A stretch of DNA of 36,954 nucleotides from assembly GCA_002684935.1 (NCBI GenBank), contig NYWC01000113.1, positions 1 to 36,954 of the forward strand, written 5' to 3'. The notes beneath the pieces were generated by a model that saw only the letters and a list, made by a program, of their open reading frames with translations, did no database searches and was not told where the DNA came from. The stretch is from Gammaproteobacteria bacterium. Lineage in GTDB: Bacteria > Pseudomonadota > Gammaproteobacteria > Pseudomonadales > Pseudohongiellaceae. Positions 1-36,954 of the stretch are shown piece by piece (position 1 is the stretch's first letter; each line of letters opens with the position of its first letter). The translations under genes were made by a program, and so were the position numbers.

Positions 1-707
1 TGGCTGCAAGCTGGTCAGAGAAGGCTTACAACCAGAAGAATAAGGACGCCATAAAGATAGAAAACAAGATCACAGGAGCCACGGCTTTTGTAATCAAGCG
101 CAAAAGCATAGATGTTATTGCTTTTCGAGGTACTGAGAAAAAGCTAAACGACATCATAACTGACCTGACTGCTATCCCGGTTCCGTATGCCGGAAGGATG
201 TGCCACGCAGGTTTCGTTCTACAACACGCTTCTATCTGGAAAGAGATCAAGAAGCACATTGACCCAAAAAAGCGAACGATGTTTACAGGCCACAGTCTAG
301 GAGGTGCGCTCGCAGAGATGTCTGCCTCCAAGATGAACGGCAAGCACGACAATATCAATCTCATCACATTCGGTAAGCCGAACACGTTTTTTAAAGGCTT
401 TAAGAGGCCGATGAAGCTCGACAATCAGATATCCTGCGTAAACGGCAGTGATATGGTTGCACGAGTCCCACGGCTGCTCTACGGGCCTTCTAAGTCGCAG
501 ACAATGCTATACTTTAGCAATACAGGCCCAGACTATATAAATCCCAGCAAGGACACTAGAAGAGCTGACAGAGGCGGCGTGGCGGATAGAGTCGCTGACC
601 ACAGCATGAACGATTACAAGAAAAGGCTAAAAGAGTATCTTGATTCTCAAGAGAAGGTAAAGCCTATAAACCAAGAAGCTGCTAGGCAACTGGAGAAAAT
701 GAAATGA
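1..707 (+). CDS. Class-3 lipase/esterase, 5'-truncated by the window edge (full copy at 34268..35002)
   Basis: In frame with the full copy. Carries the GHSLGG nucleophile elbow, the GSDMVARVP Asp motif and the ADHSMNDY His motif. Confidence 0.7.
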   Translation, partial: AASWSEKAYNQKNKDAIKIENKITGATAFVIKRKSIDVIAFRGTEKKLNDIITDLTAIPVPYAGRMCHAGFVLQHASIWKEIKKHIDPKKRTMFTGHSLGGALAEMSASKMNGKHDNINLITFGKPNTFFKGFKRPMKLDNQISCVNGSDMVARVPRLLYGPSKSQTMLYFSNTGPDYINPSKDTRRADRGGVADRVADHSMNDYKKRLKEYLDSQEKVKPINQEAARQLEKMK

Positions 708-907
708 GACTGATCGGTTTATTGTTTGTTTTTACGTTATCAAGCTGCACATCTGTTGAACAAGTTATTGCTAACAAAGAAATATACTGCTCTTCCTTTT
801 ACAAAGGTGTTCGGGCAGTGGGCAGAGGAGCGCTTTCTGCTACGGCTGGCGTTATTGTTCCTGACGTTTGCGACACAATTGACACTATTGTGGAAACTGT
901 CGAATGA
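704..907 (+). CDS. Small lipoprotein (o-spanin or exclusion-lipoprotein candidate)
   Basis: MRLIGLLFVFTLSSC is a signal peptide plus lipobox L-S-S-C. Its start overlaps the lipase stop as ATGA. The mature part is about 52 aa with 2 further Cys. Confidence 0.6.
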   Translation: MRLIGLLFVFTLSSCTSVEQVIANKEIYCSSFYKGVRAVGRGALSATAGVIVPDVCDTIDTIVETVE

Positions 908-1371
908 AATTAGGCGGCTTGCTAAAGTCCCTTGCTCCGACTATAGCTAGTGCTGCAGGCGGTCCGATGGCAGGAATGGCTGTAAAGATGGCTGCATCTA
1001 AACTAGGCTTGCCTGAAACTGCAACTGCTAATGAAATCGAGGATTTAATAGAGCGCGAACCTGACAAAGCGGTTCTTGTAAAACAAGCAGATCAAGATTT
1101 TAAAACAAAGATCCGAGAAATGGAGATAGACCTTGAGTCATTTAAGACTGAGGTTGAGGACAGGAAGGATGCTAGGACTAAGTTTGCAAGCGATGTTACG
1201 CCTAAAGTCTTTTGCATTCTTGCTCTTATTTTGTACGGAGCTTATGTAATGACCGTGACTATTCTGCCTCATGATCAAAATGATGAGACCATAATCTCAC
1301 TCGTGCTGGGCCAGCTATCAGGAATACTGGGAACCTGCGCGGCGTTCTTCTATGGAGGCTCTCAGAAGTGA
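904..1371 (+). CDS. Putative holin (amphipathic/charged N-terminal half, two C-terminal TMDs)
   Basis: Hydrophobic segments VFCILALILYGAYVMTVTIL and IISLVLGQLSGILGTCAAFFYG. Sits directly upstream of the lysozyme, with an ATGA overlap upstream and a GTGA overlap downstream. Confidence 0.5.
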   Translation: MKLGGLLKSLAPTIASAAGGPMAGMAVKMAASKLGLPETATANEIEDLIEREPDKAVLVKQADQDFKTKIREMEIDLESFKTEVEDRKDARTKFASDVTPKVFCILALILYGAYVMTVTILPHDQNDETIISLVLGQLSGILGTCAAFFYGGSQK

Positions 1372-1799
1372 ATAAGATGGATAAGCTAATTGAACAACTA
1401 AAGCGCCACGAGGGCGTAGAGACTCACGCTTACAAATGCTCAAGCGGTAAGCTGACTATTGGCGTTGGTAGAAATATTGATCCAGAGGGCGGCATAGGGC
1501 TGGCAATGGAAGAGATAGAATACCTGCTGTCCAATGACATCCTTCGATGTATAAAAGAGCTTAGCGCTGAGTATCCGTGGTTTGGTCAACTAGATGAAAC
1601 TCGTCAGGAGGCAATCATCAATATCTTCCTGAATCTGGGTGCGACAAGGTTCCGGCTTTTTAAGCGAGCATTAGCCGCGATGGAAGAGGGTAATTACGAT
1701 GAGGCTAGCACTGAGTTTCTTGATAGCCGATGGGCAAAGCAGGTAGGCGGTAGAGCGTTAGAGCTTACCGATATCATAAGGTCAGGCGAGTATGTATGA
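1368..1799 (+). CDS. Endolysin, T4/P22-type lysozyme (GH24)
   Basis: LKRHEGVETHAYKCSSGKLTIGVGRNI matches the GH24 EG...AY.D..G..TIGxG signature, with Cys at the usual Asp position. GGAGG lies 10 nt upstream of the GTG start. Confidence 0.85.
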   Translation: MNKMDKLIEQLKRHEGVETHAYKCSSGKLTIGVGRNIDPEGGIGLAMEEIEYLLSNDILRCIKELSAEYPWFGQLDETRQEAIINIFLNLGATRFRLFKRALAAMEEGNYDEASTEFLDSRWAKQVGGRALELTDIIRSGEYV

Positions 1800-2190
1800 T
1801 CCTTATATTTACGTTTGTGAGATAGTGAAGGTTGTTGATGGAGACACTATTGATGTTAATGTTGATTTGGGTTGGTCTGTTAGTGTGCGTAAGCAGCGCA
1901 TTCGTTTGTATGGTATTGACGCTCCCGAGTCTCGCACTAGAGATTTGGAAGAAAAACAATTCGGCAAAGCCTCTAAGAAGTTTGTCAAAGACTTTCTGAA
2001 CAGCGATCACATACTTCTCAAGACGAGAGAGAAAGGCAAGTACGGCAGATATTTAGGTGATTTCTGCGTAGATGATAAATGGCTCTGCGATGAGATGATA
2101 CAAGCTCACCACGCTGTCCCATATTACGGGCAGAACAAAGCTGATATAGCAGCCGCACACATCCGCAACAGAGCCTTAGTGAAGCTCTGA
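1792..2190 (+). CDS. Staphylococcal-nuclease-like (SNase/thermonuclease fold) nuclease
   Basis: VVDGDTIDV ... RIRLYGIDAPE ... GKYGRYLGD are the classic SNase motifs. Overlaps the lysozyme stop by 8 nt. Confidence 0.75.
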   Translation: MYDPYIYVCEIVKVVDGDTIDVNVDLGWSVSVRKQRIRLYGIDAPESRTRDLEEKQFGKASKKFVKDFLNSDHILLKTREKGKYGRYLGDFCVDDKWLCDEMIQAHHAVPYYGQNKADIAAAHIRNRALVKL

Positions 2191-2394
2191 GCCGTAGCGG
2201 TCACTCTCTTCCATATACCTAAAGAACTCTTTGCTCCGAGCTTCATCACCAAAAACAAAATCTTCAAGATGTCCAAGGTTCCAAGCAAGCGTGGCGATGT
2301 AGTTGAGGTCACGGCTGTTAAAGTTTTCAGCAGCTTTCTTCAGCCATTCTTCGCAGTCTTCTGGATTCTTCAAAATAAAACTTATGCCTTCCAT
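2176..2394 (-). CDS. Hypothetical protein (72 aa), last gene of the leftward operon
   Basis: ORF coupled by a 13-nt overlap to the upstream minus-strand gene. No recognisable motif. Confidence 0.55.
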   Translation of the reverse strand: MEGISFILKNPEDCEEWLKKAAENFNSRDLNYIATLAWNLGHLEDFVFGDEARSKEFFRYMEESDRYGSELH

Positions 2395-2888
2395 TTTGCG
2401 ATCTCTTCGATATCTTTTAAATAACGGTATCCTAACAGCCTAGCGTCTGATTTTATTGGCCTAGTCTTAACTATTTCTCCGGCGGCGTAATCCTTTCCTT
2501 TTTTTGTGGTCCAAAACCATTCTTTGCTGCAGTAGCCCATAACAGCAATTTCTTCTTTGTCTATGTCAACGCAGCAAAAAATGTAAACATCACACTTTTG
2601 ATGGTCTCGGAGATACGCCGTAACCAATCCGTTACCTGCTTCTCGCTTTCCGTACTTCGACGCTCGACTACTTTTAACGTCAAATCTAAGACCCTTCACA
2701 ATTAGATCGTAATCTTTGGAATCGGAAAAATCAAAAGAGATGCCGAGTCCATCTAATACCTGACAGGTAGCTAGCTCGCCAAGAGTGCCTGTTATCTTGC
2801 TGTTACTATTTACGCTTTGATGATTTAGCGTTTCAGGCTCGCCGTAGGCAATGTCTAACCAGTTGGGATCAATCTTCAGTATTATCAT
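2382..2888 (-). CDS. Putative PD-(D/E)xK-fold nuclease
   Basis: GTLGE ... DYDLIV ... FDVKS fits an E / D / (D/E)xK arrangement. Lies in the recombination operon. Confidence 0.4.
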   Translation of the reverse strand: MIILKIDPNWLDIAYGEPETLNHQSVNSNSKITGTLGELATCQVLDGLGISFDFSDSKDYDLIVKGLRFDVKSSRASKYGKREAGNGLVTAYLRDHQKCDVYIFCCVDIDKEEIAVMGYCSKEWFWTTKKGKDYAAGEIVKTRPIKSDARLLGYRYLKDIEEIAKWKA

Positions 2889-11201: not shown

Positions 11202-13416
11202 TTATGATGATGGCAAAGAGCTAGAGGATCGCGGTGCGACTGAGGACGATCTTGCCTACAAAGCAGATTACGAGGAGCATCAGGACGTTATCGAGCTGCT
11301 TGATAAGTGCCAGCAAGCAGACAAGGACAACCGTGAGCGCGTCAGAGAAGCTCATTTGTTCTTGGACAAGCGCGATGGTCAGTGGGAACCCTACTGGTGG
11401 AACTCTAACGAAGCCAAGCCGCGCTATACGTTCGATATGGTGAATCCCATAGTGGATCAGGTTGCCTCTGAGATAGAGCAATCCGACTACGACATCCGAG
11501 TATCTCCAGCTGGAGGTGATGCAACTAAAGACCTTGCCATTGCCTATGACGGCATCATCCGCAACATTGAGCAGATGTCTAACGCTAAGACGACCTACGC
11601 CCAGTGCGCTCGCAATATGGTGATCGGCGGGATGGATGGCTGGCGCGTGGTCCAGAAGTACGTTGATGATAATAGCTTCGACCAAGACCTAGCCATTGAG
11701 CATGTCGGTAACTTCGTGGACCGGGTGTGGTTCGATCCCGCAGCTGAGAATCAAGATAAGTCTGACAGTCGGTATGCGTTTGTGCTTCACGCAATGGCGA
11801 AGGATGAATACGAGGCCAGATTCCCTGAAGGCTCTGGTGAAAGCGTAGATGATGACCGAGAGGGCGAAGCATACTACGACAAGGCTGAGTGCATTGTGGT
11901 TGGTGAGTTTCTGTATCTTGAGTCAGAAGACCGCGAGCTGGTCATGATGTCCAACGGTCAGGTGCACGAGGTTAATGAGGACTTTGACAAGGTTGTAGAT
12001 GATCTAGCAGCCATTGGTGTGACAGAGGCAAAGCGCCGGACCCGCAAGAAGCACTATGTTTGTTCGAGGTTCTTTGATGCGAAGGACTTCCTTGAGGACA
12101 AGAAAGAGACCGTATTTTGCCGAATCCCAGTGGTCCCTGCTTACGCCAACTTCAAGATATTCGAGAATAAGACAATCTACTGGGGAGTAGTTGAGAAGCT
12201 GCTTGATCCGCAGCGGGTGATGAACTACAGCGTATCCCGTGAGATTGAGGAAGGTGCGCTTGCTCCGAGGGCCAAGTATTGGATGACAATGGCTCAGGCT
12301 TCAGGGCATGAGAAGCAGCTCCAAACTTTAAATACCAACGCTGATCCGGTTCAATTCTACAACGTAGACCCAGAGTCACCTGCCGTGCCACAGCAGCAGG
12401 GAGGAAGTCAGGTCAATCCCGGACTGGCGCGGATATCTGAGTCTATGCGAGCAATCATAGGTCAGACGGCTGGTATGTTCGCTGCGAATATGGGAGACAA
12501 TCCCGGTCTACAGTCTGGCGTTGCTATCAAGCAGTTGCAGGACCGTGGGACCAATAGCACGATGAAGTACAGTCGCGGCCTAGAGATTGCGGTAGCGGCT
12601 ACAGGAAGGCTCCTAAAGGATGCTATACCGATGGTCTACGACACAGAGCGTCAGGTCAGGATACTCCGAGAGGATGAGTCCTACGATATGGTGCCAATCA
12701 ATCAGAAGGTGATCGACAACGCCACAGGCGAGATTGTCACCGTCAATGATCTGCAGGTTGGAACCTATGACGTTACCTGTCGGGCTGGCCCTAGCTTCCG
12801 CAACCGTCAGCAGGAGACCATCGAAGCAATCACGACACTGGCTCAGACTGATCCGAGCCTGATGCAGATCGCGGGTGACCTTTTGTTGCAGAACATCTCC
12901 ACTCCGGCGGCGTCACAAATCGCAGAGCGCAAGCGGATACAGATGATCGCGCAAGGTCTCATTCCTCAATCTCAGATGACCGAGGAAGAGCTGCAAGAGA
13001 TGGCCGCTAAGATGCAGGCGCAAGGACAGCAGCAGGCTCCTGATCCGGCTATGGTGCTCGCACAGGCAGAGCAGATGAAGGCTCAGGCTGACATGATGAA
13101 GGCGCAGATAGATGCCCAGAAGGTGCAGAACGACACCTTGAGGATACAGCTGCAAGCCCAGAACGATCAAAACGAGCTGGTAGCCGAGCAAGCCAAGACG
13201 CAAGTTGATGTCTTCAACGCCCAAACCAATCGCATAAAGGCGCAGGTAGAGGCTGAGAAGGCTGGTGCTACGATAGACCACACCAACATAAAGGCGTTTG
13301 GTGACCAGCTAGACAACCAAGAGCAGATGACCGATATGATGGATGAGCAGGAGCGCAAGGCCCGGATGGCTATGATGTCCGACGTGGACCTAATGAGGAT
13401 TGCTAACAGTGGCTGA
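11194..13416 (+). CDS. Portal protein (P22-like, with a long C-terminal helical Q/A/K-rich barrel)
   Basis: 740 aa directly after TerL with an 8-nt overlap. The C-terminal ~140 aa are coiled-coil-like (QAEQMKAQADMMKAQIDAQKVQ...). Confidence 0.75.
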   Translation: MASYDDGKELEDRGATEDDLAYKADYEEHQDVIELLDKCQQADKDNRERVREAHLFLDKRDGQWEPYWWNSNEAKPRYTFDMVNPIVDQVASEIEQSDYDIRVSPAGGDATKDLAIAYDGIIRNIEQMSNAKTTYAQCARNMVIGGMDGWRVVQKYVDDNSFDQDLAIEHVGNFVDRVWFDPAAENQDKSDSRYAFVLHAMAKDEYEARFPEGSGESVDDDREGEAYYDKAECIVVGEFLYLESEDRELVMMSNGQVHEVNEDFDKVVDDLAAIGVTEAKRRTRKKHYVCSRFFDAKDFLEDKKETVFCRIPVVPAYANFKIFENKTIYWGVVEKLLDPQRVMNYSVSREIEEGALAPRAKYWMTMAQASGHEKQLQTLNTNADPVQFYNVDPESPAVPQQQGGSQVNPGLARISESMRAIIGQTAGMFAANMGDNPGLQSGVAIKQLQDRGTNSTMKYSRGLEIAVAATGRLLKDAIPMVYDTERQVRILREDESYDMVPINQKVIDNATGEIVTVNDLQVGTYDVTCRAGPSFRNRQQETIEAITTLAQTDPSLMQIAGDLLLQNISTPAASQIAERKRIQMIAQGLIPQSQMTEEELQEMAAKMQAQGQQQAPDPAMVLAQAEQMKAQADMMKAQIDAQKVQNDTLRIQLQAQNDQNELVAEQAKTQVDVFNAQTNRIKAQVEAEKAGATIDHTNIKAFGDQLDNQEQMTDMMDEQERKARMAMMSDVDLMRIANSG

Positions 13417-15112
13417 GCAAACATCTCTGCGCCAGTTTATTCCTGAGCCTACTACGTCATTGATGAGCGTAGAGGGCTTGTCTGGCTACACACAGCAGAA
13501 TCCTTTACCAGTTGATGAGAGGGACAGACAGGAAGCCGCAAGGGAGCTGAGCCGCAGAGGCATAACAGCGCAGGCTCCTGTGCCGTCCAATCAGAGCGTG
13601 ATGGCTGCGCCTACGTCATACAATCCGTTTAATCCTGCGTTTAGAGAGACCGCAAGATCAGCTCTAAATGACTTCTTTGGCGGTAGCAATATTGCAGGCA
13701 GAGAAGGTTATCGCACAGGCCAGCTAGTAGATACTGCGGTAGGAGCGATGGACTTTGCGCCTGCTCTTGGCGATGCAATGGGTGCAGGTGATCTGAGGCA
13801 GTCTATTGGCTCTGGTGATCTGATAGGTGCTGCTGTAGACACCACGGCTTTGGCTGCTGGAATGTTGCCAATTTTAGGAGACGCTGCTGCAAAAGGTATA
13901 AAGGCAAGTGAAACCAGCCTAAGAAGTTACATCGATGTCCCGACAAGAAGCGATTACGGGCCGGTAGTACAGACCGCTGAGGCTGGCAGGATTGTTGAAA
14001 CACCGCCCAGAGATTTTAGGAACGAAAAAGGTTACAGCACTAACCCGCTAATGGCTGCGACTGACTTACAGTCAAGACCAGAAAATATTGCAAAAGGATC
14101 GTATCGCGGTCTAGTAAACAGATACGAAACTGATCCAGACTTTGCAATGCGGGAACAGGCTCGACTGCTGGGCGGTAGATATACTCAGCCTGACAATTTG
14201 TTTATGCAATCTGCGACTTACGAAGACTTGCTAGGAAAGCCTCTGGTGATTTTGCCTGCTGACAAAACAATTTACGGAGAAGTTGATAGAATAGCTGGAA
14301 TCGACATTGATCCAGTGCTGGTAGAAGGAGGCCCGCAGCATTTAGACAGATATGGTAACTGGATGAGCATGGGCGGCGCTGCTAGAAGCAAGCAAGCTCA
14401 CGTTAATCGTGTGCGAGAAGAGACGCAGCAAGACCCAGTATTGATGTACACAGCAATGGCAAATCCCGGCTCTAATTTTTCTGTGCCGCCGTCTCAAATT
14501 GCTGTCAACATGATAAAGCAACAAGGTGATTTGACCAGAGATCAGGCTGTTATGCTGGACTCGGCTATTGCCAACTTAAATCCAAATAACAAAGACCTGA
14601 AAGGAATACCAGAAAGTTGGCCCGGTTATGAATCACCGGAGCAGCTATTGGAATGGCTGACAACAGATTCTCCTACTGCTTCAGCAGGAAACAAGCGTAA
14701 AGCCTTTATGGGAGATGCAATATTAAACAAACCAGCTTTTCAAAAATCAGGGTTCCCAATACCAAATGACATTTACTCTGTTGTCAATGAGCAAGAAATG
14801 ATGAATATGCCCAAAGGCATGAGCGGTGCTAGGGCTATGGTATCAACGGATATAAATCCATCTGACATGGTTGTTGATCCAACTCTGAATAGGTCTTACA
14901 ACACGATTATTCCGAGTCAAGGCGGAATTGCAATAACGGAACCAATGGTTCCTTATGATGTTATGTATCCTGATCCAATAGCGGCAAGAGCTGGCAGGCA
15001 TGACCCGTACAGGTCTTTTCAGACATCAGGATCGGCTCAAGATTATCAAATGGCTAATGAACAATGGCTGGAAGGTGTATATCGGAACTTAGAATCTCGT
15101 GGATTAAAATAG
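13400..15112 (+). CDS. Hypothetical 570-aa protein between portal and scaffold (possible minor head or internal protein)
   Basis: Long ORF starting at TTG 13400 or GTG 13409 and overlapping the portal stop. Gly/Ala-rich N-terminal third. No motif recognised. Confidence 0.6.
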   Translation: MLTVAEQTSLRQFIPEPTTSLMSVEGLSGYTQQNPLPVDERDRQEAARELSRRGITAQAPVPSNQSVMAAPTSYNPFNPAFRETARSALNDFFGGSNIAGREGYRTGQLVDTAVGAMDFAPALGDAMGAGDLRQSIGSGDLIGAAVDTTALAAGMLPILGDAAAKGIKASETSLRSYIDVPTRSDYGPVVQTAEAGRIVETPPRDFRNEKGYSTNPLMAATDLQSRPENIAKGSYRGLVNRYETDPDFAMREQARLLGGRYTQPDNLFMQSATYEDLLGKPLVILPADKTIYGEVDRIAGIDIDPVLVEGGPQHLDRYGNWMSMGGAARSKQAHVNRVREETQQDPVLMYTAMANPGSNFSVPPSQIAVNMIKQQGDLTRDQAVMLDSAIANLNPNNKDLKGIPESWPGYESPEQLLEWLTTDSPTASAGNKRKAFMGDAILNKPAFQKSGFPIPNDIYSVVNEQEMMNMPKGMSGARAMVSTDINPSDMVVDPTLNRSYNTIIPSQGGIAITEPMVPYDVMYPDPIAARAGRHDPYRSFQTSGSAQDYQMANEQWLEGVYRNLESRGLK

Positions 15113-15278
15113 ATTCGTGTTCAGTAAAGCTGCCAGATTCGAATATCTCTTCTGCGGTTAAAATACCTTCAAAATCAAGGTGTCCAAAGCAGTCAAAATA
15201 CTTTTTAATTAAGTCATCCATTGAGTGAGTATAACAAAGTATACGAAAGTGTTAAACAAGTGCATTTGCAATAATTGC

Positions 15279-15370: not shown

Positions 15371-16189
15371 ATGGAAGGTAAGATGGAACAGGAAGATATT
15401 GTCGATGAGGCTGAAATAGAGCTTGAAGACGTAGAAACCGAAGGTCAGGAAACTGGCTCCGAATCATCACCGGATACTGAGGAGGCTCAGGAAAAACAAA
15501 CCAAACCTGTCTTTGACGATAGGCAGCAAGAGGCGTTTGATAAAGCTATAGCTGAGAAAGTTTTCAAGCTCAGGGAAAAAGAGCGAGAAGCTGAAGAGCT
15601 AAAACAGCGTTTATCAAGCCTTGAGCAGCAAATGCCAAAGCAGGAAAGGCCAAACGTGCCGAAGGAGCCGGACCCGTATGCCCTGAGTGATCAGGAGTAT
15701 CAGCAACAGCTCCGAATGCGCGATGAAGCCATAGCTAGACAGGCTGCATTTGATGCACAGCAGCGCTTCCAACAACAGGAAGCACAGCGTTTGCAACAAG
15801 AGCAGGCAATGAAACAGCAGGAGGCTTTGAACGAGAAGGTATCTACCTACTCGCAGCGAGCTGTCCAGCTTGGCATTACTAATGAAGAGTTACAGGCAGC
15901 GGGTAATTCCGTTGCTGCGTTTGGCATCTCGGATGATGTAGTCAACTATATTTTAGAGGACGATCTGGGACCAGCTATAACAAAGTACCTCAGTCAGAAC
16001 GTAACCGAGCTAGACACCATCCGGTCTATGAGTCCGGCGCAAGCTGCGGTGAGGATAGCAACTCATGTACGAGAAAAGGCTGCTGCATTGAAACCTAAAG
16101 TAAATGCCGCTCCTGATCCGGTTAATCAGCCAGCAAAAGCTGGTGTTGCGCCTAAAGCGCGAGGACCGAAAGGAGCAATGTTTGAATGA
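15371..16189 (+). CDS. Scaffolding protein
   Basis: Acidic N-terminus, Gln/Glu-rich coiled-coil middle and basic C-terminus. Immediately upstream of coat. The start is ATG 15371 or 15383; the track's 15305 is TTG and lies inside the promoter. Confidence 0.6.
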   Translation: MEGKMEQEDIVDEAEIELEDVETEGQETGSESSPDTEEAQEKQTKPVFDDRQQEAFDKAIAEKVFKLREKEREAEELKQRLSSLEQQMPKQERPNVPKEPDPYALSDQEYQQQLRMRDEAIARQAAFDAQQRFQQQEAQRLQQEQAMKQQEALNEKVSTYSQRAVQLGITNEELQAAGNSVAAFGISDDVVNYILEDDLGPAITKYLSQNVTELDTIRSMSPAQAAVRIATHVREKAAALKPKVNAAPDPVNQPAKAGVAPKARGPKGAMFE

Positions 16190-16205
16190 ATGAGGTGATC
16201 CGAAA

Positions 16206-17477
16206 ATGGCTAATAATCTTAATAGCAATATTACCCGGAAAGTGGCCCGTGTCTTTTTAGAGGCATTCGAGTCCAGCCGGGTTGTAACAAAGACCGTTGA
16301 CACTCAACTCCTGAGTGGCAAATTCAACCCATCAAGTGGTAGCAATGTAGACTTCAAGCGTCCACATGACTACAACTCCATCCGTACTTCTGGCGGTAAT
16401 ATTTCATCCGCTACAAAGTCAGACATCATTGCTGGTAAAGCAACTGGTACTGTACAGAACTACTTCACCGTAGCCACTGAGTGGGGAAACGTCGAAGAGG
16501 CTCTGGAACTCGACCAGTTGGAGCAAATCCTTAACCCAATGGCACGACGAATCGTAACCGATTTGGAGATTGACCTTGCGAGCTTTATGCTCAAGAACGC
16601 ATCTTTAAAGTATGGTGCTCACGGTCAGGCTGTTGATGCTTGGGGAGATGTAGCTGGTGCTGGTGCACTGATGGATTCTATCGGCGTACCTGCTGCTGCA
16701 GAACGCTACTACCTGATGAATCCTTTTACTACTAGCGCACTTGCTAACATCCAGCAAGGTCTGAACGCATCAGATCAGTTGGTTCGTACCGCTTGGGAGA
16801 ATGCACAAATCTCTCAGAACTTTGGCGGTCTGCGAGCGCTGACATCTAACGCTCTGTCCAGCTTTACTGCTGGCACTGGCGCTGACCGTGCGGGTACTCT
16901 GTCTGCGGCTCCTGACGCAACTTATGTCACAGCTAAAGACACTATGACTCAGACTATCGCCGTTACTGCTCTCCAAGCAAATATGGTAGTTAAGGCTGGT
17001 GATATGATCACAATCGCTGATGTGAACCGTCTGAACCTAGACACTCGCACAGCTATGATTGACGCTGCTGGCGCTAACGTGCCGTGGACAGGCGTTGTAA
17101 CTGCTGACGTTACTCTTAACGGTAGTGGTGCTGGCAACCTTGTTGTTGCTGGTCCTGCGATCTATGAGGCCAATGGTCAGTACAACACTGTAGACGCTGC
17201 ACCTGCTAACGGTGCTGTAGTTACCGTTCTTAGTGCTTCAGCTACTCTGTACCAACCAAACTTGTTCTTCACTAAGCAAGCATTTGGAATGGGTACTGTG
17301 AAACTGCCTAAGCTCTACTCTACTGACACTATTGCTACTACCGAAGACGGTATGAGCATTCGAGTTAGTAAGTACGCAGATGGTGATGCCAACACCCAGA
17401 AGATTCGTTTTGACTTGTTGCCTGCATACGCAACATTCAATCCGTTTATGGCTGGTCAAGGCTTCGGCGTAGCATAA
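16206..17477 (+). CDS. Major capsid (coat) protein, P22-coat-like size and position
   Basis: 423 aa with a strong GAGGTGA SD. Follows the scaffold and is followed by a strong terminator. Confidence 0.75.
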   Translation: MANNLNSNITRKVARVFLEAFESSRVVTKTVDTQLLSGKFNPSSGSNVDFKRPHDYNSIRTSGGNISSATKSDIIAGKATGTVQNYFTVATEWGNVEEALELDQLEQILNPMARRIVTDLEIDLASFMLKNASLKYGAHGQAVDAWGDVAGAGALMDSIGVPAAAERYYLMNPFTTSALANIQQGLNASDQLVRTAWENAQISQNFGGLRALTSNALSSFTAGTGADRAGTLSAAPDATYVTAKDTMTQTIAVTALQANMVVKAGDMITIADVNRLNLDTRTAMIDAAGANVPWTGVVTADVTLNGSGAGNLVVAGPAIYEANGQYNTVDAAPANGAVVTVLSASATLYQPNLFFTKQAFGMGTVKLPKLYSTDTIATTEDGMSIRVSKYADGDANTQKIRFDLLPAYATFNPFMAGQGFGVA

Positions 17478-17492
17478 TCCCTTGAGACGTTA

Positions 17493-17527
17493 TGGGAGCT
17501 GTTTAGTATTCGGCTCCCAATTTTTTT
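17493..17527 (+). terminator. Rho-independent terminator after the coat gene
   Basis: TGGGAGC (17493-17499), a 13-nt loop, GCTCCCA (17513-17519), then A followed by T7. Confidence 0.85.
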
Positions 17528-17803
17528 ATGGCTAAACCGAGAAAAGGCAAAGCTAAAGTTAAGGTCACCAAAAGCGGTAAGCGAGTCTCCTACGGGCAGG
17601 CTGGCGAAGCCAAAGGAGGTGGTCCGAGAGTCAAGCCGGGTACAAGTAAGGGTGATTCCTATTGTGCTCGGTCTCTTGGCATCAAGAAAAGATTGCCAAA
17701 AGAAAAGCAAAACGATCCCAATACTCCTAACAACTTGAGCCGCAAGCGCTGGAAATGCAAGGGCGCTAAGTCGATGAAAAGCAAGGGTGCTAAGTATGAG
17801 TGA
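17528..17803 (+). CDS. Very basic small protein (91 aa, Lys/Arg-rich), ends ...KGAKYE
   Basis: ORF starts right after the terminator T-tract. Composition read from MAKPRKGKAKVKVTKSGKR.... Confidence 0.6.
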   Translation: MAKPRKGKAKVKVTKSGKRVSYGQAGEAKGGGPRVKPGTSKGDSYCARSLGIKKRLPKEKQNDPNTPNNLSRKRWKCKGAKSMKSKGAKYE

Positions 17804-17972
17804 CGGTCTATATTCCAATATCCACAAGAAGCGGAAAAGGATAAAGCGGCAAAAAGCTCAGGGCAGAACACCTGAGCGCATGAGATCGCCGGGAAGCGCT
17901 GGAGCGCCTACTGCTGGCGCATTCCGACAGAGTGCGCGTACTGCTAAGAAGAAAAAACCAACATTTGAATAG
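17796..17972 (+). CDS. Basic small protein (58 aa), ends ...KKKKPTFE
   Basis: The ATG overlaps the upstream stop (ATGAGTGA). Contains the run NIHKKRKRIKRQKAQ. Confidence 0.55.
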   Translation: MSDGLYSNIHKKRKRIKRQKAQGRTPERMRSPGSAGAPTAGAFRQSARTAKKKKPTFE

Positions 17973-18036
17973 GAGGCAAAAATGCCAAACAAAAAAGGCA
18001 AAAAGAAAAAACCATACTAAGCGCGGAGAGTGACAA

Positions 18037-18225
18037 ATGGCTAAAGGTGTATCGCATTATACAAGGAGCGGCAAACTACACTCTGGTGAAATGCACAAGA
18101 TGGAAGATGGGACGTTGCACACTGGCAAATCGCATACAAAATCTAGCGTTCAACTATTTCACTTAGGCGAATTGTCCAAGTCTGTGCAAAAACGTATAAA
18201 GCAAAAAGGAATGAATTTCGAATAA
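18037..18225 (+). CDS. Basic, His-rich small protein (62 aa), ends ...KGMNFE
   Basis: GGAGAG lies 6 nt upstream of the ATG. Confidence 0.6.
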   Translation: MAKGVSHYTRSGKLHSGEMHKMEDGTLHTGKSHTKSSVQLFHLGELSKSVQKRIKQKGMNFE

Positions 18226-18707
18226 TGGCTACTGTGGCGCAGGTTGCAAAGGCATCCTTACAAAGAATTCTAGTGCAGGCCAGTGAGGCACCGCTGCAGC
18301 CTGATGAGTATAGTGATTTCATATTTTCTATGAATAACTACATGACAGAGCTAGATGCTCAGGGTATCCAGTTAGGGTACACAGAGGTATCTGACTTAGG
18401 TGATGACGTAACGATTCCTACAGGCGCCCTGAGAGGCTTGATTGCTAATATGGCTATAGAGGTTGCGCCTGACTATAACGGCGTGATCTCTCAAGGTCTG
18501 GTGAAGGCTGCGCGGGATGGTTTTAACACAATGCGCCTGTTAGGGCAGACATTAGGTAAGAGCAAGAATCCTGCAACACTGCCGATTGGCTCAGGCAACG
18601 AAGATACGCTGTTTGGCTTTCCCGGACATTTTTACCCAGAGTCTGAAGAAGAAATATTGGCCGAATCTACTGGCGCGATAGGATTGGAGCTGAATACAAA
18701 TGGTTGA
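18225..18707 (+). CDS. P22 gp4-like head-completion/tail-adaptor protein
   Basis: 160 aa. AIEVAPDY and LPIGSGNE...HFYPE resemble, from memory, the P22 gp4 APDY / PTGSGN / YFPGE motifs. The position matches the P22 gene order. Confidence 0.55.
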   Translation: MATVAQVAKASLQRILVQASEAPLQPDEYSDFIFSMNNYMTELDAQGIQLGYTEVSDLGDDVTIPTGALRGLIANMAIEVAPDYNGVISQGLVKAARDGFNTMRLLGQTLGKSKNPATLPIGSGNEDTLFGFPGHFYPESEEEILAESTGAIGLELNTNG

Positions 18708-34049: not shown

Positions 34050-34271
34050 ATGGAATTTCAAACTGGATTTAACGTATTTTTAGCAATCATTAGCTTTGGT
34101 GGCGGTTGGCTAGTTAATCGTGTTTTTGTCTTGCTTGATAGAATCGACGCTGACATGAAGCAAATACCTGAGAAGTATGTTGCCAAAGATGATTACCGCG
34201 AGGACATCCGTGAGATCAAAGAAACACTAGGCGCTATTTTTAAGAAACTAGATAACAAGGCCGAGAAATGA
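34050..34271 (+). CDS. Small single-TMD membrane protein (holin/antiholin candidate)
   Basis: FNVFLAIISFGGGWLVNRVFVLL followed by a highly charged C-terminus. 73 aa. Confidence 0.5.
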   Translation: MEFQTGFNVFLAIISFGGGWLVNRVFVLLDRIDADMKQIPEKYVAKDDYREDIREIKETLGAIFKKLDNKAEK

Positions 34272-35002
34272 AACTTGATCCTGTTTTACTAAATATGGCT
34301 GCAAGCTGGTCAGAGAAGGCTTACAACCAGAAGAATAAGGACGCCATAAAGATAGAAAACAAGATCACAGGAGCCACGGCTTTTGTAATCAAGCGCAAAA
34401 GCATAGATGTTATTGCTTTTCGAGGTACTGAGAAAAAGCTAAACGACATCATAACTGACCTGACTGCTATCCCGGTTCCGTATGCCGGAAGGATGTGCCA
34501 CGCAGGTTTCGTTCTACAACACGCTTCTATCTGGAAAGAGATCAAGAAGCACATTGACCCAAAAAAGCGAACGATGTTTACAGGCCACAGTCTAGGAGGT
34601 GCGCTCGCAGAGATGTCTGCCTCCAAGATGAACGGCAAGCACGACAATATCAATCTCATCACATTCGGTAAGCCGAACACGTTTTTTAAAGGCTTTAAGA
34701 GGCCGATGAAGCTCGACAATCAGATATCCTGCGTAAACGGCAGTGATATGGTTGCACGAGTCCCACGGCTGCTCTACGGGCCTTCTAAGTCGCAGACAAT
34801 GCTATACTTTAGCAATACAGGCCCAGACTATATAAATCCCAGCAAGGACACTAGAAGAGCTGACAGAGGCGGCGTGGCGGATAGAGTCGCTGACCACAGC
34901 ATGAACGATTACAAGAAAAGGCTAAAAGAGTATCTTGATTCTCAAGAGAAGGTAAAGCCTATAAACCAAGAAGCTGCTAGGCAACTGGAGAAAATGAAAT
35001 GA
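34268..35002 (+). CDS. Class-3 lipase/esterase (full-length copy, 244 aa, no signal peptide)
   Basis: AFRGT, HAGF, GHSLGGALA, GSDMVARVP and ADHSMNDY give a complete Ser/Asp/His set in the Lipase_3 order. Confidence 0.75.
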   Translation: MKLDPVLLNMAASWSEKAYNQKNKDAIKIENKITGATAFVIKRKSIDVIAFRGTEKKLNDIITDLTAIPVPYAGRMCHAGFVLQHASIWKEIKKHIDPKKRTMFTGHSLGGALAEMSASKMNGKHDNINLITFGKPNTFFKGFKRPMKLDNQISCVNGSDMVARVPRLLYGPSKSQTMLYFSNTGPDYINPSKDTRRADRGGVADRVADHSMNDYKKRLKEYLDSQEKVKPINQEAARQLEKMK

Positions 35003-35202
35003 GACTGATCGGTTTATTGTTTGTTTTTACGTTATCAAGCTGCACATCTGTTGAACAAGTTATTGCTAACAAAGAAATATACTGCTCTTCCTTTTACAAA
35101 GGTGTTCGGGCAGTGGGCAGAGGAGCGCTTTCTGCTACGGCTGGCGTTATTGTTCCTGACGTTTGCGACACAATTGACACTATTGTGGAAACTGTCGAAT
35201 GA
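34999..35202 (+). CDS. Small lipoprotein (second copy of 704..907)
   Basis: Identical to the first copy. Confidence 0.6.
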   Translation: MRLIGLLFVFTLSSCTSVEQVIANKEIYCSSFYKGVRAVGRGALSATAGVIVPDVCDTIDTIVETVE

Positions 35203-35666
35203 AATTAGGCGGCTTGCTAAAGTCCCTTGCTCCGACTATAGCTAGTGCTGCAGGCGGTCCGATGGCAGGAATGGCTGTAAAGATGGCTGCATCTAAACTA
35301 GGCTTGCCTGAAACTGCAACTGCTAATGAAATCGAGGATTTAATAGAGCGCGAACCTGACAAAGCGGTTCTTGTAAAACAAGCAGATCAAGATTTTAAAA
35401 CAAAGATCCGAGAAATGGAGATAGACCTTGAGTCATTTAAGACTGAGGTTGAGGACAGGAAGGATGCTAGGACTAAGTTTGCAAGCGATGTTACGCCTAA
35501 AGTCTTTTGCATTCTTGCTCTTATTTTGTACGGAGCTTATGTAATGACCGTGACTATTCTGCCTCATGATCAAAATGATGAGACCATAATCTCACTCGTG
35601 CTGGGCCAGCTATCAGGAATACTGGGAACCTGCGCGGCGTTCTTCTATGGAGGCTCTCAGAAGTGA
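35199..35666 (+). CDS. Putative holin (second copy of 904..1371)
   Basis: Identical to the first copy. Confidence 0.5.
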   Translation: MKLGGLLKSLAPTIASAAGGPMAGMAVKMAASKLGLPETATANEIEDLIEREPDKAVLVKQADQDFKTKIREMEIDLESFKTEVEDRKDARTKFASDVTPKVFCILALILYGAYVMTVTILPHDQNDETIISLVLGQLSGILGTCAAFFYGGSQK

Positions 35667-36094
35667 ATAAGATGGATAAGCTAATTGAACAACTAAAGCG
35701 CCACGAGGGCGTAGAGACTCACGCTTACAAATGCTCAAGCGGTAAGCTGACTATTGGCGTTGGTAGAAATATTGATCCAGAGGGCGGCATAGGGCTGGCA
35801 ATGGAAGAGATAGAATACCTGCTGTCCAATGACATCCTTCGATGTATAAAAGAGCTTAGCGCTGAGTATCCGTGGTTTGGTCAACTAGATGAAACTCGTC
35901 AGGAGGCAATCATCAATATCTTCCTGAATCTGGGTGCGACAAGGTTCCGGCTTTTTAAGCGAGCATTAGCCGCGATGGAAGAGGGCAATTACGATGAGGC
36001 TAGCACTGAGTTTCTTGATAGCCGATGGGCAAAGCAGGTAGGCGGTAGAGCGTTAGAGCTTACCGATATCATAAGGTCAGGCGAGTATGTATGA
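35663..36094 (+). CDS. GH24 lysozyme endolysin (second copy; carries the single synonymous difference at 35986)
   Basis: GGC vs GGT Gly codon. The protein is identical. Confidence 0.85.
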   Translation: MNKMDKLIEQLKRHEGVETHAYKCSSGKLTIGVGRNIDPEGGIGLAMEEIEYLLSNDILRCIKELSAEYPWFGQLDETRQEAIINIFLNLGATRFRLFKRALAAMEEGNYDEASTEFLDSRWAKQVGGRALELTDIIRSGEYV

Positions 36095-36485
36095 TCCTTA
36101 TATTTACGTTTGTGAGATAGTGAAGGTTGTTGATGGAGACACTATTGATGTTAATGTTGATTTGGGTTGGTCTGTTAGTGTGCGTAAGCAGCGCATTCGT
36201 TTGTATGGTATTGACGCTCCCGAGTCTCGCACTAGAGATTTGGAAGAAAAACAATTCGGCAAAGCCTCTAAGAAGTTTGTCAAAGACTTTCTGAACAGCG
36301 ATCACATACTTCTCAAGACGAGAGAGAAAGGCAAGTACGGCAGATATTTAGGTGATTTCTGCGTAGATGATAAATGGCTCTGCGATGAGATGATACAAGC
36401 TCACCACGCTGTCCCATATTACGGGCAGAACAAAGCTGATATAGCAGCCGCACACATCCGCAACAGAGCCTTAGTGAAGCTCTGA
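36087..36485 (+). CDS. SNase-like nuclease (second copy)
   Basis: Identical to 1792..2190. Confidence 0.75.
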   Translation: MYDPYIYVCEIVKVVDGDTIDVNVDLGWSVSVRKQRIRLYGIDAPESRTRDLEEKQFGKASKKFVKDFLNSDHILLKTREKGKYGRYLGDFCVDDKWLCDEMIQAHHAVPYYGQNKADIAAAHIRNRALVKL

Positions 36486-36689
36486 GCCGTAGCGGTCACT
36501 CTCTTCCATATACCTAAAGAACTCTTTGCTCCGAGCTTCATCACCAAAAACAAAATCTTCAAGATGTCCAAGGTTCCAAGCAAGCGTGGCGATGTAGTTG
36601 AGGTCACGGCTGTTAAAGTTTTCAGCAGCTTTCTTCAGCCATTCTTCGCAGTCTTCTGGATTCTTCAAAATAAAACTTATGCCTTCCAT
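36471..36689 (-). CDS. Hypothetical protein (second copy of 2176..2394)
   Basis: Identical to the first copy. Confidence 0.55.
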   Translation of the reverse strand: MEGISFILKNPEDCEEWLKKAAENFNSRDLNYIATLAWNLGHLEDFVFGDEARSKEFFRYMEESDRYGSELH

Positions 36690-36954
36690 TTTGCGATCTC
36701 TTCGATATCTTTTAAATAACGGTATCCTAACAGCCTAGCGTCTGATTTTATTGGCCTAGTCTTAACTATTTCTCCGGCGGCGTAATCCTTTCCTTTTTTT
36801 GTGGTCCAAAACCATTCTTTGCTGCAGTAGCCCATAACAGCAATTTCTTCTTTGTCTATGTCAACGCAGCAAAAAATGTAAACATCACACTTTTGATGGT
36901 CTCGGAGATACGCCGTAACCAATCCGTTACCTGCTTCTCGCTTTCCGTACTTCG
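36677..36954 (-). CDS. PD-(D/E)xK-like nuclease, 5'-truncated by the window end (second copy of 2382..2888)
   Basis: Same sequence as 2382..2659. The ORF runs off the window. Confidence 0.4.
   Translation of the reverse strand, partial: KYGKREAGNGLVTAYLRDHQKCDVYIFCCVDIDKEEIAVMGYCSKEWFWTTKKGKDYAAGEIVKTRPIKSDARLLGYRYLKDIEEIAKWKA

Follow-up and report, generated by a model that had tools for sequence, protein, structure and literature searches.

The 36,954-nucleotide stretch of marine gammaproteobacterial contig NYWC01000113.1 (hereafter the window) carries the genome of a P22-like podophage, in which the scaffolding protein and three small, very basic proteins encoded just after the coat gene (p91, p58 and p62) end in the same C-terminal motif. 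The motif is shared by these proteins, is under purifying selection at the protein level, has been acquired by several unrelated families and strictly co-occurs with this type of scaffold terminus. We consider it on balance probable that the motif is a scaffold-mimicking tag, which docks the small basic proteins to the coat and thereby builds them into the procapsid as cargo. The features concerned are the following.

15383–16189, plus strand: gene for the scaffolding protein, between portal and coat (phrog_8865, head scaffolding protein, E 2e-27)
16088–16186, plus strand: disordered 33-residue scaffold tail LKPKVNAAPDPVNQPAKAGVAPKARGPKGAMFE, modelled by AlphaFold2 as coil (predicted local distance difference test, pLDDT, mostly <50)
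16169–16186, plus strand: K-G-A-M-F-E, the putative terminal hook of the scaffold
16206–17477, plus strand: coat protein, P22/Sf6-type HK97 fold (PF11651, E 3e-70)
16206–16280, plus strand: coat N-arm MANNLNSNITRKVARVFLEAFESSR, net charge +2
17493–17527, plus strand: intrinsic-terminator-like hairpin and U tract directly 3' of the coat gene; the p91 start codon abuts the U tract
17528–17803, plus strand: p91, 91 residues, with a DUF6321-like core at residues 18–77 and the tag K-G-A-K-Y-E at 17783–17800
17796–17972, plus strand: p58, 58 residues, GLYxNIHKKRKRI family (phrog_16028, E 2e-16), with the tag K-P-T-F-E at 17955–17969
18037–18225, plus strand: p62, 62 residues, His-rich, MKGVKHY...HKM.DG.LH.GK.H family, with the tag K-G-M-N-F-E at 18205–18222

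The scaffold ends in ...RGPKGAMFE (stop codon 16187–16189), p91 in ...KSKGAKYE (17801–17803), p58 in ...AKKKKPTFE (17970–17972) and p62 in ...KQKGMNFE (18223–18225). The initial annotation of this DNA had read the four C-termini in this way, and they hold at each stop position. It had also described a common ending of basic residues, one variable residue and (F/Y)E; that ending is present, and the shared motif runs longer than was noted, over six positions, as K-[GK]-[AP]-x-[FY]-E on the small proteins and K-G-A-x-F-E on the scaffold. Position by position, the frequent residues are K, G/K, A/P, T/K, F/Y and E in the small proteins and K, G, A, T/I/V/M, F and E in the scaffolds. Exactly four of the 325 six-frame open reading frames (ORFs) of at least 30 residues in the window end in [FYW]E, namely the scaffold, p91, p58 and p62, and none of the other 40 plausible genes of the genome has an [FY]E end. 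The background frequency of [FY]E ends, taken from the minus-strand ORFs of 81 related loci and the window, is 5 in 3,590, compared to 229 in 2,007 on the coding strand. By our own arithmetic, the probability of finding four tagged genes among ~44 by chance is around 1e-6. The four-of-325 count and the minus-strand background thus lead us to reject a chance origin of the motif.

The scaffold probably starts at ATG 15383, which gives 268 residues, and not at TTG 15305, the start of the longest ORF; a ribosome-binding site, GGAAGG, precedes the ATG, and homologous scaffolds have 267–285 residues. The protein is acidic (isoelectric point, pI, 4.7) and is 34–39% identical to the scaffold of Pseudoalteromonas phage H6/1, the closest cultured relative, the coats of the two phages being 57% identical. 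Its terminus is shared by 118 of 120 scaffold homologues (50–99% identical), which end in G-[AV]-[TIVM]-F-E preceded by the consensus P-K-x-[KR]-G-P-x. More distant scaffolds of the same coat lineage end in KGAKFE (H6/1), PGAKIE (Sf6) and PGTVFI (Vibrio phage 234P9), while those of 80 H6/1-like loci end in G-A-x-[FY]-x with E as the usual last residue, and the outline G-[AT]-x-[FYI]-x is retained throughout these wider relatives (H6/1-like, Sf6 and Vibrio 234P9). AlphaFold2, supplied with a 45-sequence alignment, predicts a scaffold that is helical to residue 235 and whose last 33 residues are coil, with no helix-turn-helix. P22 gp8 ends in a helix-turn-helix, GDVETYRKLKAKLKGIR, for which the window scaffold has no sequence counterpart. 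As the predicted tail is disordered and lacks a folded domain, a short linear motif therefore appears to stand at the place of the coat-binding domain of P22. The coat gene has its own ribosome site, GAGGTGA, which is separate and lies ~10 nucleotides beyond the scaffold tag.

The pI values of the small proteins are 10.7 (p91), 11.8 (p58) and 10.0 (p62, which contains 6 His residues). Their ratios of nonsynonymous to synonymous substitution rates (dN/dS) against diverged relatives are 0.04 for p91, 0.08 for p58 and 0.10 for p62, taken where dS was measurable, as synonymous sites are saturated in more distant pairs; because of these low ratios we regard all three as real genes. For p91, AlphaFold2 predicts a small folded core, nearly invariant in homologues, and a disordered tail. 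A fold search of this model against the PDB gave no match with E below 6, and the window protein gave no match to the Pfam DUF6321 profile even at E <= 10. A protein of locus L087 does match DUF6321 (34.3 bits, cut-off 28.5) and has the SYCARS...RKRWKC core in common with p91 of the window. Family searches with the small proteins returned nothing significant in Pfam or NCBIfam and, in PHROGs, only families without an assigned function; we found no literature on DUF6321 or DUF6496. Descent of p91, p58 and p62 from one another as paralogues was considered and rejected, as each belongs to a family of its own in which untagged relatives occur.

Tagged and untagged relatives

We compared the window with 80 IMG/VR loci whose coat is 80–100% identical to that of the window; the database contains roughly 500 coat relatives. 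In these loci the interval from the coat to the adaptor gene is a variable cassette slot of 192–1,051 nucleotides, and the slot is complete in 64 of them. Its contents, in various combinations, are p91, p58 (including a 63–64-residue GLWDNIH variant) and p62, together with a DUF5872-like family of 134–141 residues, an MPNVGGKKF family of 40–80 residues and a family of 35–43 residues. Nearly all of these proteins end in [FY]E, and between one and four tagged genes are present in 61 of the 64 complete slots. The tag occurs on at least five unrelated families (p91, p58, p62, DUF5872-like and MPNVGGKKF), and the 35–43-residue family, which ends in NGTYE, is a possible sixth. The 134-residue tagged protein scores 24.5 bits against DUF5872, below the cut-off of 27.5, with E 4.5e-5 over the whole profile, and is likely a distant member of that family.

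The tag is encoded in every available way: all combinations of TTT/TTC/TAT/TAC with GAA/GAG and TAA/TGA/TAG occur. The linker ahead of the tag varies in length, with [FY]E staying terminal. Because all codons and stops are used and the linker length varies, selection acts on the peptide and its terminal position, not on the DNA. The tagged p58 variants P0026 and P0054 are in all cases found next to a scaffold ending in ...GATFE and have tagged neighbours; for P0054 the index of the contig collection lists 253 blocks. In two metagenomic sequences, P0017 and P0027, the stop after the p58 tag is changed to Trp (...TFE-W-...) and the frame continues into an MPNVGGKKF-family gene ending in ...KGAMYE. 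These may be read-through variants or sequencing errors.

Relatives of the same small proteins also occur without the tag. Among the best 120 of 1,854 p91 homologues (80–93% identical), 106 end in ...RWKC-x-GAKS followed by a [KR]-rich stretch and 14 end in [FY]E. For p58, 38 of 120 homologues end in [FY]E and the remainder in Lys/Arg runs, and for p62, which has 189 cluster representatives, one other sequence in the best 150 ends in YE, the representative of the window's own cluster ending in ...MNLE. Untagged p91 copies are carried by Roseobacter phage CRP-7, Vibrio phage 1.036.O, cyanophage S-TIM5 and several SU10-like and other non-P22 contigs, and in several of these phages and contigs the gene lies beside head or packaging genes. 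The untagged relatives of p91 and p58 in SU10-like and other phages are up to 92% identical.

As a control we used a second marine P22-like clade of 80 loci, in 66 of which the ORFs of the slot were counted. The scaffold of this clade ends in ...KVMAYKRGKKT and keeps the P22-type basic helix. Its slot holds p58, p62-like and DUF6496 proteins, and none of the 183 ORFs in the 66 loci ends in [FY]E. The same families are untagged under other scaffold types, and therefore the tag tracks the scaffold terminus. Among the contexts examined, no counter-example to this pairing was found in either direction.

Proposed docking to the coat and competing explanations

The mechanism that we favour takes K-G-A-x-F-E-COOH, borne on a disordered Pro/Gly/Lys-rich tail, as the scaffold's hook to the inner coat shell, which in this clade would replace the helix-turn-helix of P22. 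In the window p91, p58 and p62, and in its relatives other families as well, would carry a copy of this hook at the end of a flexible linker rich in Lys. As the procapsid assembles, these copies would take up the scaffold's coat sites, and the proteins would be built in as cargo, at a dose that the terminator after the coat gene plausibly keeps below that of the coat. When the acidic scaffold exits, the strongly basic proteins would probably be left behind with the DNA and reach the next host along with the genome. By analogy with known scaffolds, we infer that the coat is the receptor and that the proteins are incorporated in procapsids; their retention in the virion, their ejection and their roles are speculative.

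The initial annotation had already suggested that the mini-proteins make the same contact as the scaffold. The proposed shared contact gains strong comparative support, in that the tag is invariant on the scaffold, is under selection, is found on at least five families and is absent under other scaffold termini. In P22, R293 and K296 of the scaffold helix-turn-helix (residues ~268–303) bind D14, E15 and E18 of the acidic coat N-arm (PMC9965877). The first 25 residues of the window coat (NITRKVARVF) have a net charge of +2, compared to -4 to -5 in P22 and in the marine P22-like clade with a P22-type scaffold end. This reversed charge would be compatible, as a correlation only, with a different docking chemistry that involves an acidic FE-COO- end. 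The P22 analogy drawn in the initial annotation applies only in part, as the scaffold here has no helix-turn-helix, its tail is predicted to be disordered and the coat N-arm is basic.

The hairpin that had been described after the coat gene is real: the stem (17493–17519) comprises 9 base pairs with a folding free energy of -15.6 kcal/mol (z -3.0) and is followed by A and seven U. At the equivalent place after the coat gene, the annotations of P22 and Sf6 also show stem-loops or terminators. The suggestion that the small proteins condense DNA fared less well. As a rough estimate, ~100–150 scaffold-free coat sites and a charge of +6 to +23 per small protein would neutralise a few per cent of the DNA charge, and therefore bulk condensation is unlikely to be what they chiefly do. 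A role as delivered proteins that act early or protect the DNA seems more likely.

Several points weigh against the docking of these proteins as cargo. First, the loci are related, so that the counts of 61/64 versus 0/66 are counts of lineages, and the independent events number ~5–6, one per family. Second, the tag is not universal. A ~95-residue basic SF[KM]ARH family ending in ...AAKVKW is untagged in L077–L081, phages with an FE-ending scaffold, as is its 114-residue relative in L063, which ends in ...GMTVYG; the orf69-like family (P22 orf69, Sf6 gp6, H6/1 gp11; KPxG...GW) is never tagged; and the H6/1-like phages and L257 have the scaffold motif and no tagged proteins. Since untagged slot families exist, the tag is an option for some passenger genes and not for the whole slot. 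Third, we found no cultured phage with tagged proteins; a tblastn search with p58 against cultured phages gave no match, for which low-complexity masking is possibly to blame. Finally, the tagged proteins and the scaffold would be rivals for the same coat sites, a potentially harmful situation, the small proteins could exit by the scaffold's own holes, and the receptor could be other than the coat.

Of the rival explanations, the most credible, which we nevertheless judge unlikely, is that the small proteins are assembly modulators, which bind the scaffold's coat site, tune nucleation, occupancy, capsid size or scaffold release, and leave with the scaffold. A precedent exists in the 72-residue CpmB of SaPI1, which ends in the RIIK hook that the 80alpha scaffold has at its C-terminus and, inside the procapsid, binds the HK97-fold capsid protein at the same site as that scaffold (Dearborn et al. 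2017, PMC5644958), and the comparative evidence for a common receptor fits modulators as well as it fits cargo. However, the proteins described here are encoded by the phage itself, and their number (0–4) and family vary freely among close relatives, unlike what is expected of an essential assembly factor. The same families are untagged in unrelated phages, so their core function is independent of this coat. Moreover, no dimerisation domain is evident, and p91 is predicted to have a small monomeric core.

Next in credibility, and improbable in our view, is recruitment of the scaffold and the small proteins by a receptor other than the coat; candidates would be the portal, an ejection protein and a host factor. 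The P22 scaffold is reported to contact the portal as well. In both phages checked, P22 and 80alpha, however, it is with its very C-terminal end that the scaffold binds the coat, and the charge reversal in the coat N-arm parallels the change in the scaffold terminus. We give a similarly low rating to a non-targeting function, in which the motif would be a cap against a host exoprotease or degron system, or a shared degron, acquired separately in phages of one host group. Such a cap would suit the exposed, disordered and basic C-terminal tails that all carriers have, and untagged relatives end in bare Lys/Arg runs. Yet G-A-x-[FY] is kept on the scaffolds of phages whose hosts differ widely (Pseudoalteromonas H6/1, Shigella Sf6 and Vibrio 234P9), the six conserved positions are more than a cap requires, and it would not be expected to track the scaffold type within P22-like phages from similar marine samples.

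Least credible, and in our estimate very improbable, is that the motif is a by-product of gene junctions at the DNA level (an embedded Shine-Dalgarno sequence, AAR-GGA-GCN, overlapping starts, T-ATG-AG or T-TTG-AG, or a recombination linker at cassette borders): K-G-A is often encoded as AAAGGAGC 12–14 nucleotides upstream of the next ATG and several loci have the ATG or TTG of the next gene inside the Tyr/Phe and Glu codons, but every synonymous codon and all three stops are used, Gly being also GGT and GGC, the scaffold is tagged though the coat has its separate GAGGTGA site, and FE ends are missing from the control clade, in which the gene junctions and the adaptor gene are the same. At some junctions the K-G codons may double as a ribosome site.

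Gene layout of the slot and the surrounding genome

Three further features frame the genes described above.

17982–18020, plus strand: conserved 12-codon mini-ORF MPNKKGKKKKPY, between p58 and p62, 5 nucleotides after a perfect AGGAGG
18225–18707, plus strand: head-tail adaptor, P22 gp4-like (PF11650, E 6e-9; phrog_637), the downstream border of the variable cassette slot
13400–15112, plus strand: 570-residue ORF between portal and scaffold, overlapping the portal stop

The small genes lie in the late structural operon and are translationally coupled by ATGAGTGA and TAATG overlaps. The ATG of p58 at 17796 consists of the last two bases of the p91 Tyr codon and the first base of its Glu codon (an alternative upstream GTG would give 61 residues), and the stop of p62 overlaps the ATG of the adaptor gene (TAATG). 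More generally, the Tyr/Phe and Glu codons of the tag often hold the start of the next gene, as T-ATG-AGTGA or T-TTG-AGTAA (17795–17803 in the window; L012, L014 and L015), and the frequent K-G-A coding sequence AAAGGAGC resembles a ribosome-binding site. The mini-ORF MPNKKGKKKKPY ends in Tyr, lacks the [FY]E tag and is similar to the N-terminal part of MPNVGGKKF-family proteins; at the equivalent place L039 has MPGKKGKKKKGY, with its own Shine-Dalgarno sequence. It may encode a micro-protein, or may be a remnant or miniature of an MPNVGGKKF-family gene.

Other occupants of the slot and relatives of its genes deserve mention. In P22 and Sf6 and on to the marine phages, the slot that follows the coat terminator contains the conserved orf69-like family (KPxG...GW...KRGRKPK; P22, L090 6135–6344; Sf6, L091 3266–3451; H6/1, L001 7325–7462; also L063, L072 and L077). 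The annotation of H6/1 gp11 as a 'putative acetyltransferase' looks unfounded for a protein of 45 residues. Untagged basic proteins in other clades end in ...G-Y-COOH, in the forms KKGY, KSGY, SNGY, KAGY and KMGY (the p62 relatives P0362, P0384, P0414 and P0419; L087 4810–4989; L261 7325–7615). Judged from these sequences, this ending might be a different, clade-specific terminal tag; the scaffold of L087 ends otherwise (...IIGSKL). Genes resembling p62, p58 and p91 also travel as a cassette in SU10-like and other marine podophages (L173 7679–8255; L262 1092–1543), and natural fusions are found, P0369 joining p62 to p58 and phrog_11180 matching both p58 and p91. The cassette and the fusions suggest that the p62-, p58- and p91-like proteins work together.

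The phage genome is complete and circularly permuted, with a length of 34,295 bp. Window positions 1–2659 equal 34296–36954, and this terminal repeat of 2,659 nucleotides contains one mismatch only (position 1691 versus 35986). Its genes encode ERF and YqaJ recombination proteins, a helicase and a primase. The small and large terminase, the portal, the unassigned 570-residue ORF, the scaffold, the coat and the three small ORFs are present as well, as are genes for the gp4-like adaptor, a head closure protein of the gp10 type, ejection proteins and tail-fibre proteins, a class-3 lipase and a lysozyme. When one genome per bacterial species was searched for a prophage or a host, only four fragments of metagenome-assembled genomes matched.

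The 570-residue ORF has no significant match in Pfam, PHROG or NCBIfam. H6/1, P22 and Sf6 lack it, with either nothing or small reverse ORFs at this place. We considered its product as the receptor of the tag or as a protease and rejected both, given the lack of a family match and its absence from H6/1, whose scaffold ends in FE. Between this gene and the scaffold gene lies a 55-residue reverse ORF (15054–15221, minus strand), near which a promoter-like site (15255–15228, minus strand) has 10/12 matches and a TG extension; H6/1 has four reverse ORFs at the equivalent position. The lipase/lysozyme region (34268–35002 and 1368–1799, both plus strand) encodes a class-3 lipase domain protein (PF01764, E 1e-16). 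On the circular map the lipase gene is three genes upstream of the lysozyme gene, an unusual content for a phage lysis region.

Related systems and implications

Phage T4 provides a functional parallel. Its small basic proteins IPI–III and Alt share a short terminal capsid-targeting peptide that takes them into the prohead, from which they are later injected together with the DNA. This peptide lies at the N-terminus, binds the scaffolding core and is cleaved off by the prohead protease. The phages described here are similar in having several small basic proteins with a terminal peptide (three in the window; at least five families across the clade) and differ in that the tag is C-terminal and the same as the scaffold's own end. 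P22-like phages are not known to possess a prohead protease, and no protease family was matched among the window ORFs scanned, which were a part of the total. A second parallel is the encapsulin cargo peptide, which is short and C-terminal, follows a flexible linker and docks inside an HK97-fold shell near the N-terminal helix. Disordered tails, linkers of variable length and an HK97-fold coat (PF11651) are found here as well. In contrast, the encapsulin consensus is rich in Gly/Ser/Leu/Ile and the shell is a cellular compartment without scaffold or DNA, whereas the shell here is a portal-bearing phage head.

The likeness to CpmB is that a small protein carries the C-terminal motif of the resident scaffold. 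CpmB, however, is satellite-encoded and dimeric and redirects capsid size, whereas here the late operon of the phage itself encodes several unrelated, very basic and apparently monomeric proteins. The hooks also differ, that of 80alpha and CpmB being RIIK after a helix and the one described here being K-G-A-x-[FY]-E on a disordered tail, with a binding function that is presumed. Compared to P22 gp8, the scaffold of the window has the same gene position, a helical body and, by analogy, a C-terminal coat-binding role; the helix-turn-helix is absent and the charge of the coat N-arm is reversed. P22 is also the basis of engineered particles, in which any protein fused to the scaffold C-terminus is loaded into procapsids in vivo (review, PMC9962691). 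The coat family is the same, and in both cases the coat-binding end of the scaffold would lead to encapsidation. The engineered loading is man-made and uses a helix-turn-helix fragment of 66–163 residues, whereas that proposed here would be natural, would require ~6 residues and would rely on other chemistry. P22 itself has no such tagged proteins, its orf69 ending in ...SDADKD.

Scaffold mimicry and cargo-loading peptides are known kinds of capsid targeting, and by analogy the tagged phage proteins would extend both. In the literature on P22/Sf6 scaffold binding, T4-type capsid targeting and DUF6321/DUF6496, we found no published tailed phage that loads its own proteins by copying the docking peptide of its scaffold. 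A wider proposal, which we advance tentatively and consider possible rather than probable, is one of natural modular loading: a scaffold-derived peptide of ~6 residues would be all that any protein needs to be taken into a P22-type procapsid (T=7), and this group, which is abundant in marine metagenomes, would have reused the tag repeatedly to make the products of a widespread small basic cassette (p62-p58-p91 and others) capsid-internal, DNA-associated and delivered to the next host. On this wider proposal, the loading mechanism that nanotechnologists devised with P22 would already exist in nature in a minimal form.

If docking through a scaffold-mimicking tag is correct, it would be a natural case of a tailed phage that loads its own proteins by means of a copy of its scaffold peptide. 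In the Sf6/H6/1 branch of P22-like scaffolds, the motif would represent a new and very short coat-binding element, which would be of use as a minimal tag for encapsidation. The docking mechanism would further predict that tagged proteins are inside the capsid and untagged ones outside, and would provide a first functional handle on abundant uncharacterised basic families (DUF6321-like, DUF5872-like, p58 and p62).

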